A DNA stretch of 64,000 nucleotides from an uncultured Bacilli bacterium (GCA_934162445.1 CAKPIT010000002.1:77379-141378); one strand, 5' to 3'. Positions 7,379 through 53,708 are shown, counted from the first letter of the stretch. Notes: generated by a model not told the origin, from the sequence alone. Made by a program: numbers and translations.

Positions 7379-8356
7379 TTGTGGTATATTGGTGATGTTA
7401 AAATAGATAATCAAGTTGTTTTAGCGCCAATGGCAGGGATTGGTAATAGTGCTTATCGGCAGATTATCAAAGAAATGGGTTGTGGCTTAATTTATGCGGA
7501 AATGGTTAGTGATAAGGCTATTTGTTATGATAATAAGAAAACAATTGATATGCTTTATATGAATGAGATGGAACGACCTATTGTGCAACAGATCTTTGGA
7601 AGTGATAAAGAAACTTTTGTTGAAGCTGCTAAATATATAGAACGAGTAATGCATCCAGATATTATAGATATTAATATGGGATGTCCGGTTCCTAAAGTTG
7701 CGTTAAGAAGTCAAGCAGGGAGTGCTTTGCTTAAAGATGAACAAAAGATTAAGGAAATTGTTAGTAGTGTAGTTTGTGCAGTTAAGTGTCCTGTAACGGT
7801 TAAAATACGTAGTGGTTGGGATAGTGAACATATTAATGCAGTTAGTGTTGCTAAGGTGTGTGAGGAAGCGGGAGCTAGTGCTATTTGTGTTCATGCGAGG
7901 ACAAGAAGTCAAGGTTATAGTGGTAAGGCGGATTGGAATATTATTAAGGCTGTCAAAGAAAGTGTTAATATCCCAGTTATTGGTAATGGCGATGTAACAA
8001 CGCCTTTAAAGGCTAAAGAGATGCTTGATTTTACTTCTTGCGATGCTGTAATGATTGGTAGAGGGGCTCTTGGTAATCCATGGCTTATTAGAAATACAGT
8101 TTTATATTTAGAGGGTAAAGATTACACTTTACCAACGGATATAGAAAAAGTTGATATGTGTATAAAACATCTATTACTATTAACTAAGTTAAAATCAGAG
8201 CATCAGGCTCTTCTTGAAATTAGAAGTCATGTGGGTTGGTATTTAAAAGGGGTTAGAGGAAGTAATGAAATAAAAAAGAAAATTTATCAAACTGTGAAAC
8301 TTTGTGATATACTACATATATTGAATGAATTTAGAGAGGAGTTAGAAAATGGCTAA
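7379..8356 (+). CDS. dus: tRNA-dihydrouridine synthase
   Basis: VVLAPMAGIGNSAYR motif and TIM-barrel FMN motifs (DINMGCP, catalytic Cys). Position between mscL and lysS as dusB in Bacillus. Confidence 0.85.
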   Translation: MWYIGDVKIDNQVVLAPMAGIGNSAYRQIIKEMGCGLIYAEMVSDKAICYDNKKTIDMLYMNEMERPIVQQIFGSDKETFVEAAKYIERVMHPDIIDINMGCPVPKVALRSQAGSALLKDEQKIKEIVSSVVCAVKCPVTVKIRSGWDSEHINAVSVAKVCEEAGASAICVHARTRSQGYSGKADWNIIKAVKESVNIPVIGNGDVTTPLKAKEMLDFTSCDAVMIGRGALGNPWLIRNTVLYLEGKDYTLPTDIEKVDMCIKHLLLLTKLKSEHQALLEIRSHVGWYLKGVRGSNEIKKKIYQTVKLCDILHILNEFREELENG

Positions 8357-9050
8357 GAAGAGTGCAACTTTTACTTTTGATAAGAAAAAAGAAAACGAAG
8401 AGAATGTTGATAAATCTTTAGAGATGAAGGCAACTTTTACTCAAAGATTATTTGCGTTTATTGTTGATGCAATTATTTTAGGATTTATATCAACGTTAAT
8501 AATCAGTTTTATTCCAATTAATGATGCTTCAAAAAGACTTTATGAACAACAAGAAGAGGTTATTAAAGATTATACTGATAAAAAAATAACGATGGATAAA
8601 TATGTTAATGAAATGCTTGATATTAATTATGATATTTCTAGACAAACTTATATCTTATCAATTGTTTCTATTGCCTTAAGTTTATGTTATTATGTTATAT
8701 ATCCATGTTATAATAATGGACAAACCCTTGGGAAAAAATTATTTAAAATAAGGGTTAAAAAGCTTAATGATAAAGATCTTTCAATGAATGATTTATTGAT
8801 AAGAGCAATGATTAATAATAGTATACTTTATAGTATATTGGGAGTTATTTTGGTTCTTTTTTTGAAAAAAGATATTTATTTAGGAGTTACTTCACTGATG
8901 GGAGTGACACAATATTTGGTTCTTTTTGTTAGTTTATTATTAATAGCCTTTTCAAAAAGAAGTCAAGGTCTTCATGATTTGGTAGTACATACTGAAGTTG
9001 TAATGGCTAATACAGTAAAGGAGGAGAAATTATGCCAAGAAGGGAATTAA
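8349..9050 (+). CDS. RDD-family membrane protein
   Basis: RLFAFIVDAIILGFIS RDD-like motif with several TM helices. Basic/acidic N-terminus. Confidence 0.5.
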   Translation: MAKKSATFTFDKKKENEENVDKSLEMKATFTQRLFAFIVDAIILGFISTLIISFIPINDASKRLYEQQEEVIKDYTDKKITMDKYVNEMLDINYDISRQTYILSIVSIALSLCYYVIYPCYNNGQTLGKKLFKIRVKKLNDKDLSMNDLLIRAMINNSILYSILGVILVLFLKKDIYLGVTSLMGVTQYLVLFVSLLLIAFSKRSQGLHDLVVHTEVVMANTVKEEKLCQEGN

Positions 9051-10510
9051 ATGAACAAGAGAAAGTAAGACGTGAAAAATTAGAAAAAATTAGTGAGATA
9101 ACGAATGCTTATCCAGAACGATTTGAAATTACTCATGAGTTGAAGGATGCAAGAGAATTACCTGATGAAACTAAGGATGTTAAAATAGCAGGAAGAATTG
9201 TATTTCTTAGAAAAATGGGTAAGATGAGCTTTTTAAGACTTAGAGATTTTGATGGAGAGATTCAGGTTTCATTAAAACTTGATTTATTAGGAGAAGAGGC
9301 TTATAGTTTTTTTAAGAGTTTAATAGATGTAGGAGATTATGTAGGATTTGAAGGAGAGATTTTTACTACACAAACTGGTGAAAAGACCCTTCGAGCTTCA
9401 TCTTTAACTTTTTTAGGAAAGGCTTTAAGACCACTTCCTGAAAAATTTCATGGTTTAACTGATCCTGAGATGTGTTATAGAGAGCGATATGTCGACCTTA
9501 TTATGAATAAGGAGACTCGTGATAGATTCCATATTAGATATAAATTTATTCGTGAATTACGTACTTATTTAGAAAATTTAGGGTATTATGAAATTGAAAC
9601 TCCTATTTTAAACAATAAGGCGAGTGGGGCTGTGGCAAGACCTTTTGTGTCTCATCATAATGCTCTTGATCTTGATGTTTATCTTCGTATTGCTCCTGAA
9701 ACTTATATGAAAAGAGCAGTTCTTTCAGGAATGAATAAAGTTTTTGAGATTGCAAGATGTTTTAGAAATGAAGGAATGGATGCTACTCACTTACAAGATT
9801 TTACGATGATTGAAGCATATCAAGCTTATTATAATTATGAAGATAATATGAAGTTAATTCAAGATATGTTACAAACTATTATTATGAATACCTTTGGTAC
9901 TTTAAATATTAAAGTAGGGGATAAAATGATTGATATGAGTGGTACTTGGCCTAAGGTTTCATTTAGAGAACTTATTTTGAAGTATGCTAATATTGATATT
10001 AATGATTATCCTGATAAGGAAAGTTTACTTGCTATTATTAAAGAGAAGAAAATAGAACTTGATAGTGAGACTCCAGTTGAGAATTTAGGCTATGGTAATT
10101 TGATTGATTATCTTTATAAAAAAGTAGCGAGACCACATATTATTGAACCTATTTACTTAACTGAGCATCCAGTTAGTTTAAGTCCTTTAGCTAGAAGTAA
10201 TGATGAGAGAAAAGAGATTACGGATAGATTCCAACTTGTAGTTAATGGTGCTGAACTTGTTAATGGTTTTAGTGAACTTGTTGATCCACAGGAACAAGAG
10301 AAAAGACTTCTTGATCAAGCGAAATTAAAAGATGCTGGTGATATGGAAGCTATGGAAATGGATTATGATTATATTGAAGCTATGGAATATGGTATGCCAC
10401 CTATTTCTGGTTGGGGTATGGGAATTGATCGTATTGTTCAATTACTTACTGGTAGTGATAATATTCGCGATGTAGTTTTATTTCCTTTGATGAGACCATT
10501 AGATAAATAA
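9032..10510 (+). CDS. lysS: Lysyl-tRNA synthetase (class II)
   Basis: OB-fold N-terminal domain and class II motifs (FRNEG, GxGIDR). 492 aa. Confidence 0.95.
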   Translation: MPRRELNEQEKVRREKLEKISEITNAYPERFEITHELKDARELPDETKDVKIAGRIVFLRKMGKMSFLRLRDFDGEIQVSLKLDLLGEEAYSFFKSLIDVGDYVGFEGEIFTTQTGEKTLRASSLTFLGKALRPLPEKFHGLTDPEMCYRERYVDLIMNKETRDRFHIRYKFIRELRTYLENLGYYEIETPILNNKASGAVARPFVSHHNALDLDVYLRIAPETYMKRAVLSGMNKVFEIARCFRNEGMDATHLQDFTMIEAYQAYYNYEDNMKLIQDMLQTIIMNTFGTLNIKVGDKMIDMSGTWPKVSFRELILKYANIDINDYPDKESLLAIIKEKKIELDSETPVENLGYGNLIDYLYKKVARPHIIEPIYLTEHPVSLSPLARSNDERKEITDRFQLVVNGAELVNGFSELVDPQEQEKRLLDQAKLKDAGDMEAMEMDYDYIEAMEYGMPPISGWGMGIDRIVQLLTGSDNIRDVVLFPLMRPLDK

Positions 10511-10514
10511 TATA

Positions 10515-10546
10515 GATATCCACAGAAGTTGTGGATATCTTTTTTT
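10515..10546 (+). terminator. Rho-independent terminator after lysS
   Basis: Perfect 9-bp stem GATATCCAC-agaagtt-GTGGATATC followed by T7. Confidence 0.7.
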
Positions 10547-10617
10547 ATAAAAAGTCGGTAATTGCTTGTAAAATAAGGGAATTACTCGTATAATTGTATT
10601 AGAAAGGAGAAATTAGT

Positions 10618-12015
10618 ATGAAAAAACATAATGCACTTAAAGTAGTTATTATTACATTACTTGTATTTGTATTACTAACATGGTTTATTCCTTGTGCTAT
10701 TTATCAATCTTCTTATAGTGAAGTTGGTAGATATCAAGTTGGTATTTTTGATGTTGCTGCTTATCAATCTACAGTATTAGGTTATTTTGGTTATGTAGCA
10801 TTATTTGTGTTAGTAATTGGTGGATTTTATGGTGTATTATATAAGACTGGTGTTTACCGTAAGATTCTTGATGGAATTTGTAAAAAATTAAAAGGTAAGG
10901 AAACTATTGCTATCATTGTTATGATGTCATTACTTGCTATTTTAACTTCTTTAACTGGATTCCAAGTAGTACTACTTATGTTATTCCCATTTGTAATATC
11001 ATTAGTATTAATGATGGGATATAATAAAAAAGCAGCTGTTTTAGCTACTGCTGGTAGTGTCTCTGTTGGTCTTATGGGTACTACTTTTGCGTATAATACA
11101 ACACAAGTATTGCAACAAGTTTTATCAGTTAAAGCTGTTGACTTAATTTGGGCTAAGATTATTTTATTAGTACTTGGTCTTGTTATTTTATCTTTCTACT
11201 TATTTAAGCTTGGTAAAGATGAAAGTACAAAAAAATGTGAGGATAAGGATTTATTTATTCCTGAAGCTTCTAAGGGAAAGGATAAAAAGAAAGTATGGCC
11301 ATTAATGGTTATTCTTGATGTCATGTTTGTAATTGGCGTTTTAGCTTTTATTCCTTGGAATTCAGCATTTTCAATTGATGCTTTTGAAAAAGCTACTGAT
11401 GCTTTCTTAAAGTTTGAAGTATTTAAATTCCCAATTTTCGGTAAGATTTTTGGTTCTGTTAATGCTTTTGGTTCTTGGTCATTCCTTGAATTAATTACTT
11501 TAATGTTAGTAGCTATTATCATCATTAAATTTGTATATAAGATTAAATGGGATGATATTTTTGATGGTTTTGGTAATGGTGCTAAGAAAGCAATGTTACC
11601 AGCCTTCCTTATTCTTTTAATCTATACTTGTATTGTACTTACTACTTATAATCCATTCCAATTAGTTATTTATAAAGTAATTCTTGGAATGAGTAAAGGT
11701 TTTAATATTTTTACAACTTTCTTAGTAGCATTATTTGCAAGTATCTTTAATGGTGATCCATTGTATGCTTTTAATAGTGTACTACCTTATATGGTTAGTG
11801 TTATTAAAAGTAGTAGTAATTATCAACTTATTGCTGTTATTTTCCAAGCAATATTTGGTATTGTTACTTTAGTTGCTCCTACTAGTATTCCATTAATGCT
11901 TACTTTAGCTTATACTGATGTTTCATTCAAAGATTGGCTTAAGTATATTTGGAAAGTATTAGTAGCATTACTTGTATTAGCATTTATTATATTTACAATT
12001 TTAATATTAATTTAA
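10618..12015 (+). CDS. Polytopic membrane protein, putative transporter (YfcC/C4-dicarboxylate-carrier-like?)
   Basis: 465 aa with about 12 predicted TM helices. Family assignment is a guess from size and topology only. Confidence 0.4.
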   Translation: MKKHNALKVVIITLLVFVLLTWFIPCAIYQSSYSEVGRYQVGIFDVAAYQSTVLGYFGYVALFVLVIGGFYGVLYKTGVYRKILDGICKKLKGKETIAIIVMMSLLAILTSLTGFQVVLLMLFPFVISLVLMMGYNKKAAVLATAGSVSVGLMGTTFAYNTTQVLQQVLSVKAVDLIWAKIILLVLGLVILSFYLFKLGKDESTKKCEDKDLFIPEASKGKDKKKVWPLMVILDVMFVIGVLAFIPWNSAFSIDAFEKATDAFLKFEVFKFPIFGKIFGSVNAFGSWSFLELITLMLVAIIIIKFVYKIKWDDIFDGFGNGAKKAMLPAFLILLIYTCIVLTTYNPFQLVIYKVILGMSKGFNIFTTFLVALFASIFNGDPLYAFNSVLPYMVSVIKSSSNYQLIAVIFQAIFGIVTLVAPTSIPLMLTLAYTDVSFKDWLKYIWKVLVALLVLAFIIFTILILI

Positions 12016-45324: not shown

Positions 45325-46158
45325 ATGGTTATTACAGTTACTAGTGTTCTTACAATTGTTAAAAAGATTATTGATATATCAATTGTATGGTTAATGTTTT
45401 ATGTGATATTAAAAAATATTAGAAATAGTGTTAAACTTACCCTTTTATTTAAGGGACTTGTGGTTATAATTTTATTAAAAATAGTGAGTGATGTTTGTGG
45501 TTTTACAACTGTTGGTTTATTGCTTGAATATGTAATTATGTATGGACCACTGGCAATTATTGTTATTTTTCAACCGGAAATTAGAAATATTTTGGAGCAG
45601 CTTGGAAGAAATCAATTATTAGGTAGACATAAAGTTCTTACGGTTGATGAAAGAGAAAGACTTGTTTATGAAATTGTTCAAGCAATGGATTATATGCGTA
45701 AACAAAAAATCGGAGCTTTGATTGTTCTAGAACGTGATATTAGTCTTGGTAATTATATTGAGAAAGCTAAGAAAATATATGCTGATATTTCAAGTGATTT
45801 ATTGATTGCTATTTTCTATGAGGGTAATCCATTACATGATGGTGGAGTTATTATTCAAGGGGATAGAATTACTTGTGCTGGTGCTGTATTCCCAACTAGT
45901 AGTAGTTCTAAAATTAATAAAAGATTAGGAACAAGACACAGAGCAGCACTAGGTATTTCTGAAGAGACTGATGCAATATCACTTGTGGTATCTGAAGAAA
46001 CTGGTAGACTTTCTGTAGCTATTAAGGGTGAATTATTCTATAATCTATCACTTGATGATGTTAGAATGATGTTGATTGATGAGTTAAAACCTAAAATGGC
46101 TAGTGAATATGAAGAAGATGAATTAGAAGAGGAAGAGATATATGAAGAAGATAATTAG
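45325..46158 (+). CDS. cdaA: Diadenylate cyclase CdaA (DacA)
   Basis: Three N-terminal TM helices and a DAC domain with DGA and RHRAA motifs (PLHDGGVII, GTRHRAALG). Confidence 0.9.
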   Translation: MVITVTSVLTIVKKIIDISIVWLMFYVILKNIRNSVKLTLLFKGLVVIILLKIVSDVCGFTTVGLLLEYVIMYGPLAIIVIFQPEIRNILEQLGRNQLLGRHKVLTVDERERLVYEIVQAMDYMRKQKIGALIVLERDISLGNYIEKAKKIYADISSDLLIAIFYEGNPLHDGGVIIQGDRITCAGAVFPTSSSSKINKRLGTRHRAALGISEETDAISLVVSEETGRLSVAIKGELFYNLSLDDVRMMLIDELKPKMASEYEEDELEEEEIYEEDN

Positions 46159-47503
46159 AGGAATAGGAAAATTTTTTCATCATATTGGGGCTTTTTTTGA
46201 TAAATGGTTGATAAGTCCTATTACAAAACTTATCTTAAAAATTACGGATTTTTCTAAAAGTAATGGTAAGGGAATTGAAAGATTCCTTGGGAAGAAACAA
46301 ACGCTAATTGTTGTAAGTTTATTGTTAGCTCTTGCAGTTTTCTTTATTATTGATAGTGAAGGTAATACTACGATAGATCAATATGCTGAAGTTTTATATA
46401 ATCAACCAGTTACAGCTACTTATAATGAAGAAGCTTATGTGGTTGAAGGTCTTCCTAAGTCTGTTGATATTACTTTGGTAGGGCAAAAACGTCATATCTT
46501 TTTGGCTAAGCAGTATCCAAATGGTGGAGTTACAGTTGACTTAACGGGACTTAAACCGGGACAACATAAGGTTACACTTAAATATAGTCAACAGTTACGG
46601 TCAATAGATTATAGACTTGATCCATCAACGGTTACAGTTACTATTTATGATAAAGTTAGTACTACTAAGACTTTAACATATGATGTTTTACATCAAGATG
46701 ATTTAGATAAGAAATTAAATGTAGAGAGTGTAGAACTTGATCGTTCTGAAGTTATTGTTAAGGGTGCTCAATATAAGCTTGATAAGGTAGCAACAGTTAG
46801 AGCACTTGTAGATGTTTTAGACTTTGCTAAACAAGAAGCAGGTACACTTACACTTGAGAATGTACCACTGGTAGCTTATGATACTAATGGTAAGGTTGTT
46901 AATGTTGAGATTGTTCCTAAATCAGTAACAGCTAAAGTTGTGATTGCATCACCTAGTAAAGAAGTGCCAATTAAGATTGTACCTAAGGGTGATTTAGCAT
47001 TTGGTAAGGCCATTAAGTCAATGAGTACTAGTACTTCTAATGTAACTATTTATGGTAATAAAGATGCTCTTAGCAATATTGAAGAATTGAAAGCAGAGAT
47101 TGATGTTACTGGTCTTAATGAAGATAAAGAATATACTGTTACTTTAAAACGACCTAATGGAGTTACAGAAATTAGTAAGAAAACTATTACGGTTAAAGTT
47201 AGTCTTGATGAGTCTACTACTAAGGAATTTGATAATATTTCTATAGCGACTGAAAATCTTGATACTTCAAAATATAAAGTTCAAGCGTTAAGTGAAGCAG
47301 ATAGTAAGGTTACTGTTGTTGTAACTGGAAGTAAATCAATTATTGATAATATTGATCCATCAATAATTAAAGCTTATGTTAATCTTGATTCACTTGGTGT
47401 TGGAGAACATGAAGTAGAGGTTAAAGTTAAGGGGGATGATTTGAAACTTAGCTATGCTTCAAAAACTAAAAAGGTTAAAGTTAGAATAACGGCTAATAAT
47501 TAG
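46142..47503 (+). CDS. cdaR: CdaA regulator CdaR (YbbR-domain protein)
   Basis: N-terminal TM helix followed by repeated YbbR-like beta domains. Translationally coupled to cdaA. Confidence 0.8.
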   Translation: MKKIIRGIGKFFHHIGAFFDKWLISPITKLILKITDFSKSNGKGIERFLGKKQTLIVVSLLLALAVFFIIDSEGNTTIDQYAEVLYNQPVTATYNEEAYVVEGLPKSVDITLVGQKRHIFLAKQYPNGGVTVDLTGLKPGQHKVTLKYSQQLRSIDYRLDPSTVTVTIYDKVSTTKTLTYDVLHQDDLDKKLNVESVELDRSEVIVKGAQYKLDKVATVRALVDVLDFAKQEAGTLTLENVPLVAYDTNGKVVNVEIVPKSVTAKVVIASPSKEVPIKIVPKGDLAFGKAIKSMSTSTSNVTIYGNKDALSNIEELKAEIDVTGLNEDKEYTVTLKRPNGVTEISKKTITVKVSLDESTTKEFDNISIATENLDTSKYKVQALSEADSKVTVVVTGSKSIIDNIDPSIIKAYVNLDSLGVGEHEVEVKVKGDDLKLSYASKTKKVKVRITANN

Positions 47504-47514
47504 ATAAATATAAA

Positions 47515-47550
47515 TAATGTAGATATTTAGGTATCTACATTTTTTTATAA
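47515..47550 (+). terminator. Terminator after cdaR (coordinates approximate)
   Basis: GTAGATA-tttag-GTATCTAC hairpin followed by T7. Confidence 0.4.
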
Positions 47551-47573
47551 AAAAATCACCTTTAAAAGATGAT

Positions 47574-47768
47574 TTATCGGTCTTCAAATAACATACTTAT
47601 ATCTATTAGACCTGCTATACCAATAATAATGTAAATTATTTTGGACATTACGGCATCAGCACCACCAAAGATTGAGGCAACTAGATCTAATTCAAATAAT
47701 CCTACAAATGCCCAGTTTATGGCACCAATTATAATTAGTACTAAACATACTTTTTTTAATGTATCCAT
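47574..47768 (-). CDS. DUF378-family small membrane protein
   Basis: 64 aa with two TM helices. INWAFVGLF motif typical of DUF378. Confidence 0.55.
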   Translation of the reverse strand: MDTLKKVCLVLIIIGAINWAFVGLFELDLVASIFGGADAVMSKIIYIIIGIAGLIDISMLFEDR

Positions 47769-47887
47769 ATTTTCCTCCTTTATTTATACATTTATATAAT
47801 GAACATATTTCTTATATTTATTCATGAATATTAGAAAGTGATTATTAATATAATAAATTAGAAATGAAAAAGAGGTGTTTTCTATTT

Positions 47888-48193
47888 ATGAAAAAATTTG
47901 GTTTGTTAGGTTTTTTTCTAGTTTGTTTATTGATTACTGGTTGTGGAAAAGATAGTGAAAGTACAATTTTAAAAAAGTTAGATAAGAAAATTAATAATAA
48001 TAATTCTTATTTAATGACTGGAACACTCGAGGTTTTAAATAATGATGATATATATAATTACGAAGTGGAAACTGCATATAAAAAGGATAATTATTATAAA
48101 GTAACGCTTAAAAATACAGCGAATGATCATGAACAAATAATTTTAAAAAATGATGATGGTGTTTATGTATTAACACACAAGGGTTTAAAATAA
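47888..48193 (+). pseudogene. 5' fragment of an interrupted lipoprotein gene (signal peptide plus N-terminal domain)
   Basis: Lipoprotein signal MKKFGLLGFFLVCLLITGC with an AAGAGG RBS. The ORF ends 5 codons after the peptide VYVLT. The C-terminal fragment at 51112 restarts with LLVYVLT. Confidence 0.55.
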
Positions 48194-48291
48194 AAAAATT
48201 TAAATAGATATAATAAAAAACAGGTAGTATTGTTAATATACTACTGCTTTTTATATTTTTAGAATATTTTGTTATGCTATATTCAAAAGCA

Positions 48292-48477
48292 CTATTTACC
48301 ACCTATTTTTTTAACTTCTGCTGAAGCATTTTTTCCGTGCCATCCCATTTTTTGAGTGTTTGGGTCATACCATGTGTGTTCGCCATCCCAAGTTTTAGAA
48401 TTTTGTTGAGCTGTACCACTACTTAAATTGTGTTTTTGCCAACTATAACCATATTCATCTTTTGTTTTGTTTGACAT
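48292..48477 (-). CDS. Small Trp/Gly/Lys-rich hypothetical protein (61 aa), element cargo
   Basis: ORF with an upstream RBS-like AAGGAGA, divergent from the 48617 gene. No family recognised. Confidence 0.3.
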   Translation of the reverse strand: MSNKTKDEYGYSWQKHNLSSGTAQQNSKTWDGEHTWYDPNTQKMGWHGKNASAEVKKIGGK

Positions 48478-48566
48478 ATATATTCTCCTTTCTTATTTTG
48501 GTTATTCTAATGACGAATTGCTTCTTTGTCAACTTTTTTCTACATATTACTATATAAAATAGTCCG

Positions 48567-48594
48567 TTGACATATTAATGATTTGCTTTATAAT
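48567..48594 (+). promoter_or_regulatory. Consensus sigma-A promoter driving the 48617 cargo gene
   Basis: TTGACA (48567-72), a 16 nt spacer, TATAAT (48589-94), then RBS AGAGAGGTG and the ATG at 48617. Confidence 0.6.
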
Positions 48595-48616
48595 ATTCAT
48601 AAGAGAGGTGAATAGT

Positions 48617-49264
48617 ATGCAAATTGTGTATAATCCTAATGATATAGATAAATTGTTATTTACGGAGTTAGTAATTGCTAAAAATCAAAATGCTTCTGAT
48701 AAAAATATATTTGAAGATGAGATATATCGAAGATTTAGATTTTGTGGATTTGATGATAGATTTACAAAAGAAATGATTGAATATGAAGAAACTATTTTAG
48801 AGGTAACAAAAAAAGAGTATGATAAATATTTTTATCAGATAAAATATTGGACTAGTCTTGGTGATAATGAAAAATTATTTAAAGATAATATTGAGTCATA
48901 TGCTTTGTATATAGATGGTGAAATGTCTGATAAGGCTTTTACTACTAGTGAACTTATAAGTATATATGATGAAGGTGATTTTATTATTAGATATGGTAGT
49001 GATATTTATAGTAGTCATTTAGAAGAAATTGATATGGTTACTTCTAATAGTAAATATAATTTATTAGATGAGTTTAGAAATAGAATTGGTTATATTCTTT
49101 TTAGGGAATTTAAACAAGAATATGATTCTAATATTGATATTTGTGCTGCTAGGCTTTATAAAAATGAGGCTCATATATTGTTCATAAATAAGTATAAATA
49201 TGCTGATAATGATGATAGAAAGTGGAAGCCATATACGAGGGAATTTTTTAATTATTATGATTAA
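48617..49264 (+). CDS. Hypothetical acidic, aromatic-rich cytoplasmic protein (215 aa), element cargo
   Basis: Clean ORF with a strong promoter and RBS. No TM helices and no recognisable catalytic motifs. Confidence 0.4.
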   Translation: MQIVYNPNDIDKLLFTELVIAKNQNASDKNIFEDEIYRRFRFCGFDDRFTKEMIEYEETILEVTKKEYDKYFYQIKYWTSLGDNEKLFKDNIESYALYIDGEMSDKAFTTSELISIYDEGDFIIRYGSDIYSSHLEEIDMVTSNSKYNLLDEFRNRIGYILFREFKQEYDSNIDICAARLYKNEAHILFINKYKYADNDDRKWKPYTREFFNYYD

Positions 49265-49377
49265 ATGTTTGTAGATTACATTTTTATGTGTCTACTTTTT
49301 TATTGTTTTAATAATATGACAAAAATAGTAAGTAATAATTAAGTATTTAGTTCATATGTTTTAATGGGTGACTTTTT

Positions 49378-49482
49378 ATGAGAGTGACATGTTATTTTGA
49401 TGAGAATGGTAAATCATTTCAAGAAATTATAGAGCAATTTCTAGTTCTTTATTATAATGAAACTTTAATAGAAAATGGTTAA
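49378..49482 (+). CDS. 34-aa ORF immediately upstream of the recombinase (possible directionality factor/leader)
   Basis: ATG..TAA open frame ending 18 nt before the recombinase start. Speculative. Confidence 0.2.
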   Translation: MRVTCYFDENGKSFQEIIEQFLVLYYNETLIENG

Positions 49483-49500
49483 AAAATTTAGGAGGTAATT

Positions 49501-51090
49501 ATGGTAAGTAGTGAAATGTATAAAGTAGGTATTTATTTAAGATTATCTCATGAAGATAAATTAAAAGGTGAGAGTGGAAGTATTTCTAATCAAAGAGACA
49601 TCATTCATAAATATATAAAAGAAAATAATTTATTATATGTAAGTGAATATGTTGATGATGGTGTCAGTGGGACGCAATTTGATAGGGTTGGATGGAATAA
49701 ATTAATTGAGGATATTGAATCCGGATGTATTAATATGGTAATTACTAAGGACTTATCAAGATTTGGAAGGAATGAGGGACAACAGTTAAGGTATTTAGAT
49801 TATTTCTACGAAAAAGGAATAAGATATGTGGCGTTACTTGATAATGTTGATACATTTGATGAATATAATACATCTAATGAAATGATTCCAATACAGTGTT
49901 TTTTTAATGAGAAGCATGTAAGAGATACTTCTAAAAAGATGAAGGCGAGTGTATATAATAAAAGAAGTCAAGGTAATTTTTTGGGTAAGACTGCTCCTTA
50001 TGGTTATAAGAAAGATCCTAATAATAAATATAAGTTGATTGTTGATGAGGTGGCTTCAAAAGTGGTTAAAAGAATATTTGATTTATTTGTTAAGGGAAAA
50101 GGAATTTGTGAAATATCTAGAATTTTAACATATGAGAAAGTACCTATTCCTACTGAGTATAAGGGCCTTAAATCTGGTCATATGTCAATAGGGTATGGTA
50201 TTTGGAATAATAGAACTATTAGTGATATGTTGACTCTTCCTACTTATGTTGGTGATTTAACGCAAGGGAGGTCAAAAAAACCTAGTTATAAATCAAAGAA
50301 AAGAGTAAGGGTTAAACCTGAAGATTGGATAATATGTGAAAATAAATGTCCAGCTATAATTGATAGAGATACATTTAATCTGGTTCAAGACATATATAAT
50401 AGGAATAAAAACCAAGGTAAACATACACAAGATATATTACTTAAGGGTTTTGTGTATTGTAAAGAATGTGGTCATACAATAGGTTTTAGACTTCAAAAAG
50501 TTAATACTAAAAAGAAAGGTGAAGTTACTAGATGTTATGGTAATTGTAATTACTGGGCTAAACATAAAAAATATGATTTATGTACTCCTCACAATATTAA
50601 GTACTATGAATTAGAAGATTTAGTATTGAGTGAGATAAAGAAAATGTGTAAAAATTATTTGAAAATTAGGGATTTAGAGAATGTATTAGCGAATAGTGAC
50701 AAAACTAAAAGAATAGTAAATGAGTTAGAAATAAATTTAAAAAAATTAGTAGCAGAAGTTGAATTTAGTAATAAGAAAAAAGAAGACTTATATAGTGATA
50801 AATTAGATGGCATTATTGATTTAGAAATGTATAAAAGAATGACTAATAGAATAGCTGAAGAAACAATCACTAAACAAAACGAGATAGCAGAAATAAAAAC
50901 TAGAATATATAATATAAATAATAATATTACTAATAATAATAAAAAATATGAAAGTGTTATAAAAGAATATTTATCTATGAAAAAACCTAGTGTACAATTA
51001 TTATCTAGTATCATAGATAAAATAGTTATAGATGAAAATAAAAATGTAGAGATATATTATAAATTTAAGCCATTTGAAAATGGTTATTAA
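49501..51090 (+). CDS. Large serine recombinase (resolvase/invertase N-terminal domain, recombinase domain, zinc ribbon)
   Basis: The N-terminal resolvase domain has a catalytic Ser context (GIYLRLSHED, SISNQRD, DLSRFGRN). The middle region is a recombinase domain. C-terminal zinc ribbon (CKECGH...CYGNC) and coiled-coil. 529 aa. Confidence 0.85.
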   Translation: MVSSEMYKVGIYLRLSHEDKLKGESGSISNQRDIIHKYIKENNLLYVSEYVDDGVSGTQFDRVGWNKLIEDIESGCINMVITKDLSRFGRNEGQQLRYLDYFYEKGIRYVALLDNVDTFDEYNTSNEMIPIQCFFNEKHVRDTSKKMKASVYNKRSQGNFLGKTAPYGYKKDPNNKYKLIVDEVASKVVKRIFDLFVKGKGICEISRILTYEKVPIPTEYKGLKSGHMSIGYGIWNNRTISDMLTLPTYVGDLTQGRSKKPSYKSKKRVRVKPEDWIICENKCPAIIDRDTFNLVQDIYNRNKNQGKHTQDILLKGFVYCKECGHTIGFRLQKVNTKKKGEVTRCYGNCNYWAKHKKYDLCTPHNIKYYELEDLVLSEIKKMCKNYLKIRDLENVLANSDKTKRIVNELEINLKKLVAEVEFSNKKKEDLYSDKLDGIIDLEMYKRMTNRIAEETITKQNEIAEIKTRIYNINNNITNNNKKYESVIKEYLSMKKPSVQLLSSIIDKIVIDENKNVEIYYKFKPFENGY

Positions 51091-51111
51091 AAATAGAAAA
51101 AAATTAAACCT

Positions 51112-51846
51112 TTGTTAGTATATGTTCTCACTCCTAGTTTAAATAAAAGTTTTAAATTTCAAAGTGATTGGCCGTATAATAATTCACAGATCTATTTATT
51201 GGAATCATTGATTAATGATATTAAAAATGATAATAAAAGTGAATTTAAAACGAAAAGTGATGGCTATATTTTTACTAGTAAAGTAAATTATCCTAATAAT
51301 CGTAATTTGGTAAGACAAAAGGTTAGTCTTGATAAGAAGGTTAATTTAAAGAAAGTAATAGTTTTGGATAGTGATAGTGTTCCTAATATGACTTTAAATA
51401 TTAAAAAGATTGATTATAATCCACATTTTAGTAAAAATTATTTTAATCTTGATGATATTATGGGTAGTAGTTCTAGTAAAGATACTAAGACGGAGAAAAC
51501 AGGAATTATTAATGATGTTATTTATCCTTTGGTTCTTCCTGAGGGGACTAAGTTAACTAATGAAGAAACAGTAAAAAAAGATGATGGTAATCGGGTTATT
51601 CTTACTTTTTCTGGGGAAAAGCCATTTACTTTAGTGGAAGAAGTAGATATGGTTAATGATCAGTTTACGGTAATACCAACGATGGGGGAACCGTTTATGA
51701 TAATGGATAGTCTTGGGGTATTGGGTGATAATTCAGTTAACTTTAGTTCAAATGGTATTAGTTATTACTTGGTTAGTGATGTTATGAATCAAAGTGAACT
51801 TTTGGAAATTGCTAATTCGATAAATGTTTTACCAACAATGAAATAA
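51112..51846 (+). pseudogene. 3' fragment of the interrupted lipoprotein gene (LolA-like/DUF4367-like?)
   Basis: No signal peptide. Frame opens 3 codons after the in-frame TAG at 51094. Begins LLVYVLTPSLNK. The combined N- and C-fragment length is about 340 aa. Confidence 0.5.
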
Positions 51847-51902
51847 GCACGAAAGTGTTTATTTTTTTTAGTTTTTATGGTACTATTTAAGTGGTGATAT
51901 AT

Positions 51903-52388
51903 ATGAAGAAAACAACTTATGGAAATGAAATGCAAGGACAAGTTAAAAAAGTTATAATTATTCTTGTAGTTATAGTTATTTTATTAGGAGGAACTTATTT
52001 ATTAACAACTAAAATATTAAAGAAAAGTAATAGTACTACTTCTAATAAGGTTACTAAAAATAGTATTCAATATGATGAAATTTTAGCAGGGGAATCATTT
52101 AATCAAAATAATGATGAATATTATGTTATATATTTTGACAAAAGTAATAACTCTTCTTCTTTTAGCTCATTAGTTAGTTCTTATCAGTTAAATAATACTA
52201 AGACAAGAATGTATAGTGTTGATCTTAGTAGTGGCTTTAATAAAGATTATGTGACTGATGGTGAAGCTGTTGTTCACGATATTAATGACTTTAAAGTTAA
52301 AGATGGAACATTAATTAAAGTTAAAAATGGGGAAGTAGAAGAGGTAATAACTGATACAACTGAAATTACAAATATTTTGAATAGTTAG
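51903..52388 (+). CDS. Membrane-anchored hypothetical protein
   Basis: N-terminal TM helix (VIIILVVIVILLGGTYLL). About 160 aa. No family recognised. Confidence 0.4.
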   Translation: MKKTTYGNEMQGQVKKVIIILVVIVILLGGTYLLTTKILKKSNSTTSNKVTKNSIQYDEILAGESFNQNNDEYYVIYFDKSNNSSSFSSLVSSYQLNNTKTRMYSVDLSSGFNKDYVTDGEAVVHDINDFKVKDGTLIKVKNGEVEEVITDTTEITNILNS

Positions 52389-52475
52389 TGTAAACAAATA
52401 GTGTTATTTCACTATTTTTCTTTTAGACTTCTTTTTTTTATGTTAAAATTAAAGAAGATTAGGGTGGTAGATTGT

Positions 52476-53708
52476 ATGAATAGTGAAGATGAAAATATAA
52501 GTAATGATAATGTACGAGAAGTTATTGTGGAAAGAAAAGTAGGCTTTAGTTTCTCAGAAGTTATTATTATTATGATAATTGCTATTATGTTTGGGTTTCT
52601 TTTAGGAAATATTATTAATTTTACAGTAGTTGATAAGAAAAGTAATGATAAAGACTTAAAGGAACTGGTTAGTACTTATAATAATATTATTGATAATTAC
52701 TATAAAGATGTTAATAAGGAAGAGTTAATAGATGCGGGAATTCAAGGAATGATTAATTATTTAGATGATCCGTATGCTACTTATTTTAGTGATGATGCTT
52801 CTAAAAAATTTAATGATGAGCTTAGTGGTACTTATGAAGGAATTGGTATTCAAATAAAACTTGATGGTGATAAAGTGGTAATAACTGATGTTTTTGATGA
52901 TAGTCCTGCGAAGGATGTGGGCCTTAAAAAGAATGATATTATTTTAAAAATAGATGATAATTCTGTTAATGGTAAAACGTTAAATGAAGTTGTTTCTATG
53001 ATATCTATTAAAAATAGTAAAAGCAAGGTTAAAGTTACAGTGGAGCGTGATGGAGATCAAGTCGATTTTTCTCTTAGTAAAGGAAAGATTGAAACTCCTA
53101 ATATTGTTAGTAAGATGTACGAGAATAATGGAAGAAAGATTGGATATTTAAGGATTGAAGTTTTTTCTTTAAATACTTATAAACAATTTAATAAGGCTTT
53201 AAAAGAACTTGAAAAGAATTCGATTGATGGTCTTGTTATTGATGTTCGGGATAATCCGGGAGGCTATTTATCACAAGTTAAAGATGTGTTGAGTTTGTTT
53301 TTAAGTAAGAAGCAGGTGTTATATCAATTACAAACTAAAGATGTTAAGGAGAAGGTTTATGGTAGTAGATCTACTATTAAAAGAAAGTATCCGGTTAGTG
53401 TAATTATTAATGAAGAGAGTGCTTCAGCATCAGAGATTTTGGCTAGTGCGTTTAAAGAGAGTTATGGTTCACATATTATTGGAGTTAATTCTTTTGGTAA
53501 GGGGACAGTGCAATCAGCTTCTGATCTTAGCAGTGGTGATACAATTAAATATACAGTTCAAAAATGGTTAACGCCTAAAGGTAATTGGATTAATGAGAAA
53601 GGTGTTGTTCCTACTGATCGGTGTGAAAACGTCTTAAAAGAGGGCGAAGTTTTGACTGATGATAATGATGTTATGTTGAAAAAAGCTATAGAAACTGTTA
53701 GTTCATAG
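52476..53708 (+). CDS. ctpA: Carboxy-terminal processing peptidase (S41) with a PDZ domain
   Basis: N-terminal TM anchor. PDZ domain (GIGIQIKLDGDKVVITDVFDDSPAKDVGLKKNDIILKID). S41 core with the catalytic Ser in ESASASEI and a Lys further downstream. The ATG at 52476 has an AGGGTGG RBS. Confidence 0.75.
   Translation: MNSEDENISNDNVREVIVERKVGFSFSEVIIIMIIAIMFGFLLGNIINFTVVDKKSNDKDLKELVSTYNNIIDNYYKDVNKEELIDAGIQGMINYLDDPYATYFSDDASKKFNDELSGTYEGIGIQIKLDGDKVVITDVFDDSPAKDVGLKKNDIILKIDDNSVNGKTLNEVVSMISIKNSKSKVKVTVERDGDQVDFSLSKGKIETPNIVSKMYENNGRKIGYLRIEVFSLNTYKQFNKALKELEKNSIDGLVIDVRDNPGGYLSQVKDVLSLFLSKKQVLYQLQTKDVKEKVYGSRSTIKRKYPVSVIINEESASASEILASAFKESYGSHIIGVNSFGKGTVQSASDLSSGDTIKYTVQKWLTPKGNWINEKGVVPTDRCENVLKEGEVLTDDNDVMLKKAIETVSS

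Follow-up and report, generated by a model that had tools for sequence, protein, structure and literature searches.

In a 64,000-nucleotide stretch of DNA from an uncultured Bacilli bacterium (GCA_934162445.1 CAKPIT010000002.1:77379-141378; hereafter the window, with positions counted from its first nucleotide), a lipoprotein gene that appears to be related to ssdC/ydcC is cleanly split by a serine-recombinase element of 2,957 bp, with breakpoints at 48167/8 and 51124/5. A preliminary description of this region had recorded the split gene and proposed a skin-like intervening element, and the observation was confirmed. We favor, at a probability of about 0.68, the reading that this is a minimal, non-phage skin-type element, in which mother-cell transcription of a small open reading frame (ORF), orf34, and of the recombinase gene would drive excision and so rebuild the ssdC-like gene. 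The skin-like reading is supported by the small ORF and the promoter motif that precedes it, by a family of elements inserted at the same codon, by sister elements in spoIVA, by selection on the split gene, and by the SsdC-like target.

The 5′ fragment of the gene (47888–48193, plus strand) is preceded by a ribosome-binding site, GAGGTG, and starts according to gene callers with the ATG at 47888, which yields a protein of 101 aa (P0252); an alternative ORF start at 47864 would yield 109 aa. As described earlier, this ORF carries a lipobox (LITGC, in the context LLITGC) and stops at 48193 after the peptide VYVLTHKGLK; both forms share the C-terminal end NDDGVYVLTHKGLK. Host DNA extends through 48168, and the final eight codons and the stop codon are contributed by the element. 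The 3′ fragment (51112–51846, plus strand) is the signal-less 244-aa ORF of the preliminary description, beginning LLVYVLTPSLNK, and is host-derived from 51121. The distance from the recombinase stop codon to the TTG of this ORF is 21 nt and not the 14 nt originally given.

A search with the conceptual fusion of the two fragments, which had been proposed as a check, returned an uninterrupted protein of 333 aa (P0001) at 99% identity, together with thousands of homologues of ∼332 aa. It had been considered that the split gene would be illusory if no uninterrupted homologue existed and the two ORFs belonged to unrelated families, but orthologues were found even in near-identical strains. Nor are the ORFs paralogues, since they correspond to successive, non-overlapping parts of a single protein, aligned to residues 1–96 and 92–333 of P0001. 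The target gene is interrupted at codon ∼95 of 333, and the empty alleles consist of an intact 333-aa ORF. P0001 itself is encoded by an empty-site contig, L001, which along with the empty-site contigs L096–L099 aligns to the window over 46388/46997–48168 and from 51118 onward at 99.4–99.8% identity. The order of genes, YbbR, DUF378, the lipoprotein gene, a 161-aa ORF, and a CtpB-like protease, is common to these contigs and the window.

The att sites were set by comparison with the same empty sites, because a repeat finder was swamped by chance repeats in AT-rich DNA and missed the gapped junction repeat. The left site, attL (48145–48192), consists of the B arm, the core TATGT at 48164–48168, and the P′ arm, as delimited by the empty sites, by dyad analysis, and by a palindrome in contig L011; its sequence is GGTGTTTATGT followed by ATTAACACACAAGGGTTTAAAA. 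The right site, attR (51097–51145), consists of the P arm (AAATTAAACCTTTGTTAGTA), the core at 51121–51125, and the B′ arm, and reads AAATTAAACCTTTGTTAGTATATGT followed by TCTCACT. In the near-identical strains attB reads GGTGTTTAT-GT-TCTCACT (also written GATGGTGTTTATGTTCTCACTCC), and the reconstructed attP is CCTTTGTTAGTATATGTATTAACACAC. Only TATGT is common to attB, attL, and attR, which defines a 5-bp core without target duplication. The crossover dinucleotide is likely the GT at 48167–48168 in attL and 51124–51125 in attR; the crossover dinucleotide of serine integrases is expected to be non-palindromic, and GT fits this expectation.

Around this GT, the reconstructed attP forms an ungapped imperfect dyad with 10 of 15 matches, plus 6 of 8 in the outer arms, and in contig L011 the equivalent attP is palindromic over 16 bp without a mismatch. 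Contigs L002, L004, L006, L007, L091, and L093 have a conserved P arm. The sites therefore have the form known for large serine recombinases, ∼40–50 bp with an imperfect dyad around a 2-bp crossover and no duplication. The inverted repeat noted earlier at the junctions is real and represents the P/P′ dyad of attP, ungapped around the central GT. The appearance of VYVLT on both sides, which had been ascribed to it, does not follow from dyad symmetry itself and instead reflects the resemblance of attP to attB on either side of the 5-bp core. The VYV of attL comes from the host and the LT from the element, and in the LVYVLT of attR the element supplies LVY and the host VLT.

The 529-aa large serine recombinase was found as described, at 49501–51090 on the plus strand. 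It has the domain composition of the phage-integrase type, with matches to Pfam Resolvase (PF00239), Recombinase (PF07508), and Zn_ribbon_recom (PF13408), and it matches the PHROG integrase family phrog_95 (1.6e-92). Residues Arg-14 and Ser-16 are invariant in the alignment. The protein scores below the CcrB and XisF equivalog cut-offs and is thus a member of neither group. Its stop codon (51088–51090) is separated by 30 nt from the attR core, which begins at 51121, and the element's own recombinase gene thus lies beside an att site. The ratio of nonsynonymous to synonymous substitution rates (dN/dS) of the recombinase is 0.13–0.17. No close relative was found in deposited phages or plasmids, where identity reached at most 34%.

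Between the cargo gene ORF215 and the recombinase gene lies an ORF of 34 aa that was not recorded in the preliminary description (orf34, MRVTCYFDENGKSFQEIIEQFLVLYYNETLIENG; 49378–49482, plus strand) and that is a candidate recombination directionality factor (RDF). Nearly every related locus has a small ORF just ahead of its recombinase gene, even where recombinase identity falls to ∼30%. Within the orf34 family, the proportion of synonymous differences (pS) exceeded that of nonsynonymous differences (pN) in 36 of 36 pairwise comparisons, and orf34 is therefore protein-coding and under purifying selection. An exhaustive search of a library of 1.8 billion proteins returned 18 representatives, nearly all stand-alone, of 30–71 aa. 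Position and conservation, in parallel to the skr-spoIVCA pair of the Bacillus subtilis skin element, suggest that the orf34 product may function as an RDF.

A candidate promoter of the σE/σK type, ATA-N15-CATATGTT, is located at 49335–49360 (plus strand), 17 nt upstream of the orf34 ATG. Published mother-cell promoters share a CATA-type −10 element and differ in a −35 element of ATA (σE) or AC (σK) (PMC3789822). In 15 of 16 ssdC-targeting family loci, CATA was found 20–28 nt before the start of the small ORF, versus a background of 12% that was taken from other ORF starts over a wider interval, and the full ATA-N14-16-CATA arrangement was found in 11 of the 16 versus 6%. CATA was present clade-wide in 62 of 78 loci, including GC-rich Oscillospiraceae contigs that read CATACGAT or CATAGGCT. 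The same layout is shared by the host yabG and yabP promoters, in which ATA-N15/16-CATATTAT is followed by TTAGTGG and then by the start codon. Given the shortness of the motif and the occurrence of a loose match ahead of an ArsR gene, it amounts to strong circumstantial evidence of a mother-cell promoter and not to proof; dependence of orf34 and recombinase transcription on a mother-cell σ factor is predicted from it.

The regions upstream of yabG and yabP (1150–1190 and 2546–2578) were near-identical over ∼25 nt (CATATTATTTAGTGGTGA), with ATA located 15–16 nt upstream, and provide a clean local picture of the mother-cell promoters and leaders of this host. The one ssdC-targeting family member without the motif was contig L014 (1–260), in which the small ORF begins ∼50 nt after attL and could therefore be read from the promoter of the split gene itself, a different wiring of the same idea.

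The recombination module is thus ordered as mother-cell-type promoter, orf34, recombinase gene, and attR. In most relatives, a TGnTATAAT promoter and a leader of ∼40 nt separate the small ORF from the recombinase gene. This segment is missing from the window lineage, where 18 nt separate the two genes, and the pair consequently resembles the skr-spoIVCA operon; because the dedicated recombinase promoter and leader were deleted, the recombinase gene is apparently co-transcribed with the putative RDF gene. In Oscillospiraceae-type relatives (L037, L039, L041, L043, L044, L048, L049, L053, L054, L056, L060, L062, L065, and L068), a TACAAT/TATAAT box is followed by a recombinase 5′ leader with striking nucleotide conservation (GATGAATGGCCGCTTATCTCAGGAGG), about 30–60 nt upstream of the recombinase start. 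Closer relatives have a different conserved leader, GTATTGAAATGGTTTTGCTACCAC, at the same place, and it is this leader that was deleted in the window lineage. Such conserved leaders may represent a regulatory RNA or a binding site.

Recombinases ranging from 85% to ∼41% identity to that of the window precede the C-terminal part of the same gene, from residue 91–92 of P0001, in hosts whose versions of the target gene are only 39–68% identical. The C-terminal fragments in these diverged hosts are all intact ORFs. The similarity of the recombinases is uncorrelated with that of the host genes (84% versus 39% in one case and 50% versus 68% in another), which indicates that the recombinase lineage moved horizontally. 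Where both ends of an element were visible, its size was 2.96 kb in the window, ∼3.4 kb in L014, ∼4 kb in L017, and ∼10.4 kb in L011. The ssdC-targeting elements span 3 to >10 kb and carry cargo that is unrelated between them, and the larger relatives carry AAA_25/DnaB-like, HTH, and HIRAN modules. In the L017 element (7634–9804), the cargo comprised a 504-aa low-complexity protein and two proteins of ∼115 aa, and the window cargo was absent; cargo turnover within the ssdC-element family has been complete.

More distant members of the recombinase clade, each with a small ORF, adjoin C-terminal fragments of other genes. A spoIVA fragment of this kind matched TIGR02836 positions 121–492 with 481 bits, and the N-terminal fragments were located 3.4 to ∼11 kb upstream in L047, L034, and L063. 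In L034, the N-terminal fragment lies at ∼1071–1452, the recombinase gene at 10001–11569, and the C-terminal fragment from 11572; in L047, the N-terminal fragment lies at ∼7800–8140 and the recombinase gene starts at 10001. The split follows PRMVKTPW (∼residue 120) and is associated with recombinases 35–38% identical to that of the window, in elements of ∼3.4 to 11 kb from uncultured Bacilli or “Tenericutes” metagenome-assembled genomes (MAGs) (L034, L047, L063, L032, L036, L038, L050, and L073). Permanent loss of spoIVA would abolish sporulation, and at least the spoIVA subclade must therefore excise.

Clade recombinases were also observed beside the C-terminal fragment of a 1-Cys peroxiredoxin (PRK13189 positions 81–221 of 224; L061, L074, and L079), of a LysM-repeat amidase-like protein (L042, L052, and L069), and of a GH94-like protein (L024–L026 and L028). 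These genes, viewed from their C-terminal sides alone, may be further split genes.

The nature of the target gene was addressed with a structural model of the intact protein, the mean pLDDT (predicted local distance difference test) of which was only 65, with values of 75–89 in the N-domain. The top Foldseek matches were RseB and MucB, over the full length (∼310 columns; E values of 1e-11 to 1e-10), and the N-domain also matched LolA, consistent with a two-domain MucB/RseB-like, membrane-anchored extracytoplasmic protein. A weak sequence match to GerS was confined to the N-domain, and one homologue, P0065, carries the source (JGI) name “sporulation protein ydcC.” In B. subtilis, YdcC (SsdC) is a MucB/RseB-like protein that is made in the mother cell under σE control and affects cortex assembly and spore shape (PMC7769602). 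The target therefore appears to be an SsdC/YdcC-like spore-envelope lipoprotein, an assignment drawn from the fold match and the name of one homologue. B. subtilis SsdC is anchored by a transmembrane helix in place of the lipobox of the window protein. By homology to B. subtilis ssdC, the target would be expressed in the mother cell, and a motif scan suggested a weak candidate promoter for it, ATA-N15-CATATTTC, at 47788–47813 (plus strand). An equivalent motif, ATA-N15-CATATAAT, is present upstream of the ssdC homologue in L011 but not in L017.

The sporulation genes reported earlier for the host were borne out for YabG, YabP, and YabQ, all encoded in the window and all scoring above their NCBIfam cut-offs (280 versus 270, 95 versus 75, and 41 versus 32 bits, respectively). 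The host thus carries sporulation-specific genes and, as judged by gene content, is probably an endospore former. Hosts of related elements encode SpoIVA, and the related contigs are labeled as uncultured Bacilli, Erysipelotrichaceae, or “Tenericutes” MAGs.

Selection was assessed by comparing the window with contig L091, both of which are filled and carry the same cargo. Synonymous divergence (dS) was 0.126 for the recombinase gene, 0.125 for the flanking ctpB gene, and 0.14 for the 3′ gene fragment, and the equality of these values indicates that element and chromosome co-diverged. Over the same comparison, the 3′ fragment accumulated 18 synonymous changes, 1 nonsynonymous change, and no stop codons. 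The recombinase gene had a dN/dS of 0.17 in this comparison. The split gene thus appears to be under strong purifying selection; a dead gene would look otherwise.

Intact alleles were found in ∼32 contigs and split alleles in ∼6–10, placing the element in roughly a quarter of the assemblies of the species. Samples that carry it include ENA SAMEA4969178/ERZ28614889, ERR7738585, SRR29981081, and SRR11880813. Among strains whose flanks are 99.6–99.8% identical, some have the element precisely at the core and others precisely lack it, which points to recent activity of the recombination system. A Logan contig of 2,276 bp (L092, from SRR11880813; recombinase 95% identical) ends at the crossover GT, equivalent to window position 51125. 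This end may hint at an attR/attP fork in the de Bruijn graph, generated by excised circles, or could reflect chance or a wobble-base polymorphism. Two other Logan contigs, L088 and L090, end at 51165 and 51159 and match neither a predicted attB nor a predicted attP fork.

We infer strongly that excision occurs in the mother cell, and its timing and cell type can be proposed as follows. During sporulation, σE- or σK-RNA polymerase in the mother cell would transcribe orf34 and the recombinase gene. The orf34 product, as an RDF, would steer the recombinase toward attL × attR recombination at the central GT. This would free a 2.96-kb circle and restore the reading frame of the 333-aa gene (DDGVYVLTPSLNK) before its own mother-cell expression is due. 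The forespore chromosome would keep the element, which would therefore be inherited, and ORF61 and ORF215 would be cargo expressed vegetatively.

Several observations count against this skin-type reading. The element is polymorphic, its recombinase and host similarities are uncorrelated, and it also behaves as horizontally mobile; because it is polymorphic, the selection signal may derive in part from the empty state or from gene flow. In B. subtilis, loss of ssdC causes only a spore-shape and germination defect (PMC7769602), and given so mild a phenotype, permanent inactivation might be tolerated. The promoter assignment concerns a short motif in AT-rich DNA, and the ArsR gene that a loose match precedes is not a sporulation gene. 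A TATAAT sequence inside orf34 could allow some constitutive expression of the recombinase. No similarity was detected between orf34 and characterized RDFs other than Skr. The exact attP junction was found neither in JGI metagenomes nor in IMG/VR, a negative that is uninformative because both collections contain hardly any copies of the element; probing with only the P arm yielded one JGI contig (L093, in attR form) and none in IMG/VR.

One alternative is an ordinary site-specific integrative element, a small integrative/mobilizable island with a recombinase that by chance recognizes a conserved stretch of this gene; its insertion would knock the gene out, and its excision would be sporadic, serve transfer, and be unlinked to sporulation. 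Presence or absence among near-identical strains and horizontal spread of the recombinase are natural properties of such an element, as are the replication and regulatory modules of the larger relatives (AAA_25/DnaB-like, HTH, and HIRAN) and the TGnTATAAT recombinase promoter of most relatives, and the mild B. subtilis knock-out phenotype is in keeping with it. We nevertheless regard this alternative as unlikely. It leaves unexplained the conserved CATA-type promoter before the small ORF, the use by sister clades of spoIVA as a target, the permanent loss of which would abolish sporulation, the 18:1 ratio of synonymous to nonsynonymous changes in the split gene while element and host co-diverged, and the intact C-terminal fragments in all hosts.

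Improbable to a greater degree is that the element is a decaying remnant that no longer excises and leaves the gene permanently inactive in the window strain. Its very small size, the loss of the recombinase's own promoter, and the lack of transfer functions would suit such a remnant, but neither the recombinase gene nor orf34 is disrupted, and both show purifying selection (dN/dS of 0.13–0.17 and pS >> pN, respectively). The att arms have likewise been preserved, the gene fragments show no decay, and the exact presence/absence pattern in near-identical strains implies recent recombinase activity. Marginally less probable again is a reversible switch of the “active lysogeny” type, in which vegetative excision and re-integration would phase-vary the lipoprotein gene with no loss in a terminal cell. 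Such switches have precedents, for instance at comK and mutL (PMC7192596), the relatives have a σA-like recombinase promoter, and the end of L092 at the crossover, in an ordinary gut sample, may be an attR/attP fork. Set against these are a target of the sporulation type, a small-ORF promoter that resembles mother-cell and not σA promoters, the apparent co-transcription of the window recombinase gene with that of the putative RDF, which disfavors re-integration, and the lack of a replication function that could maintain the circle.

At the level of sequence, the window element has the defining features of skin-type intervening elements. In B. subtilis skin, skr, which encodes a 64-aa RDF, has a σE promoter and directly precedes spoIVCA (PMC6957869). 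Skin and the window element both interrupt a sporulation gene that is expressed, or in the window predicted to be expressed, in the mother cell, and in both a large serine recombinase gene sits beside an att site. Just ahead of the recombinase gene, and in an apparent single operon with it, each has a small ORF with a mother-cell promoter (predicted in the window). They differ in target (sigK versus the ssdC/ydcC-like gene) and in size (∼48 versus 2.96 kb), and the window element is devoid of phage genes. Furthermore, orf34 is only 34 codons long and free of overlap with the recombinase gene, its parallel to skr is one of position and promoter, and excision of the window element is a prediction.

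Clostridioides difficile skinCd combines a constitutive recombinase, CD1231, with CD1234, a small σE-dependent RDF that has a very short leader, its transcription start site being 14 bp ahead of the start codon (PMC5025042). This logic appears to be shared by most relatives of the window element, with the order CATA promoter, small ORF, TGnTATAAT promoter, and recombinase gene. By contrast, the skinCd RDF is 72 aa long and is encoded away from the recombinase gene, the target is sigK, and the window element has no separate recombinase promoter. The gin element in gerE of Bacillus cereus ATCC10987 is a non-prophage element that encodes a serine recombinase together with an accessory factor (GirC/GirX) and is excised in sporulation (PMC5595907). 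It resembles the window element as a non-prophage, gene-intervening element with a serine recombinase, the accessory factor of the window being a candidate only, and differs in its 28.6-kb length, its three recombinases, its target, and its core of 9 bp as opposed to the 5-bp TATGT of the window. SPbeta/phi3T (in spsM and kamA), vfbin (spoVFB), vrin (spoVR), and yin (yabG) likewise split sporulation genes and have RDF promoters of the σE/σK type (PMC4191935, PMC6957869, and PMC10747680). These too are serine-recombinase elements, but they are prophages or prophage remnants of tens of kilobases, and none is reported in ssdC/ydcC.

Mageeney et al. 2020 (PMC7192596) define regulated gene integrity (RGI) operationally by a tight integrase clade at the same gene position in multiple independent hosts, and by that definition the window element would be an RGI element. 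No intervening element of ssdC/ydcC or spoIVA was found in the literature searched, but there may be overlap with the 19 novel RGI clades (“sporulation” included) of that survey. The published split sporulation genes, sigK, spoVFB, spoVR, spsM, kamA, gerE, and yabG, would thus be joined by ssdC/ydcC and spoIVA. The phenomenon would extend to uncultured gut Bacilli with small genomes and to elements as short as 3 kb without phage genes. The newest aspect is the clade-wide association of a small ORF with the promoter. One recombinase clade with diverse cargo, several sporulation targets, and a conserved promoter bears on the repeated settling of mobile elements in mother-cell genes.

Somewhat short of even odds, and offered tentatively, is a broader proposal in which the 34-aa ORF represents an unrecognized family of tiny RDFs. 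This ORF, the recombinase gene, and the mother-cell promoter would jointly make up a portable “mother-cell excision cassette” that colonized ssdC, spoIVA, and possibly other sporulation genes across uncultured gut Bacilli and Clostridia, and the window element would be a fully domesticated, excision-only minimal version carrying vegetatively expressed cargo within a sporulation gene. Cognate RDFs are hard to find, and recombinase/RDF pairs are useful in genome engineering; known RDFs bind at the second DNA-binding domain/coiled-coil region of the recombinase (PMC12286644). With defined att sites (core TATGT, crossover GT), orf34 and its recombinase constitute a directly testable candidate pair.

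The remainder of the element, between attL and the recombination module, is occupied by cargo. A hairpin with U-runs on both strands (48213–48254), between the 5′ gene fragment and ORF61, is likely a bidirectional terminator (minus strand, −14.2 kcal/mol, z = −4.6; plus strand, −10.9 kcal/mol, z = −1.9). ORF61 (61 aa; 48292–48477, minus strand) and ORF215 (215 aa; 48617–49264, plus strand) are divergently oriented around 48504–48594, which contains the two best σA-type promoters of the region, TTGACA-17-TAGAAT on the minus strand (48532–48504; 11 of 12 matches) and TTGACA-16-TATAAT on the plus strand (48567–48594; 12 of 12 matches). A second hairpin with a U-run follows ORF215 (49271–49301, plus strand; −8.5 kcal/mol, z = −2.3) and is a likely terminator that would insulate the recombination module from the cargo promoter. 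An Rfam scan of 46000–53000 revealed no RNA elements.

ORF61, ORF215, and orf34 had no significant family match in Pfam, NCBIfam, PHROGs, and PADLOC scans, and only six homologue clusters were found for ORF215. A prophage origin of the element was rejected, as PHROGs matched only the integrase and no phage structural, lysis, or replication genes were present. ORF61 and ORF215 were also rejected as RDF candidates: they occur in no related element, have consensus σA promoters, and are found as a pair without a recombinase. They are cargo and not recombination functions. The pair was observed in a Bacilli MAG contig (L094, 6673–7642), where proteins of 63 and 213 aa with 67% identity are encoded between unrelated chromosomal genes with no recombinase.

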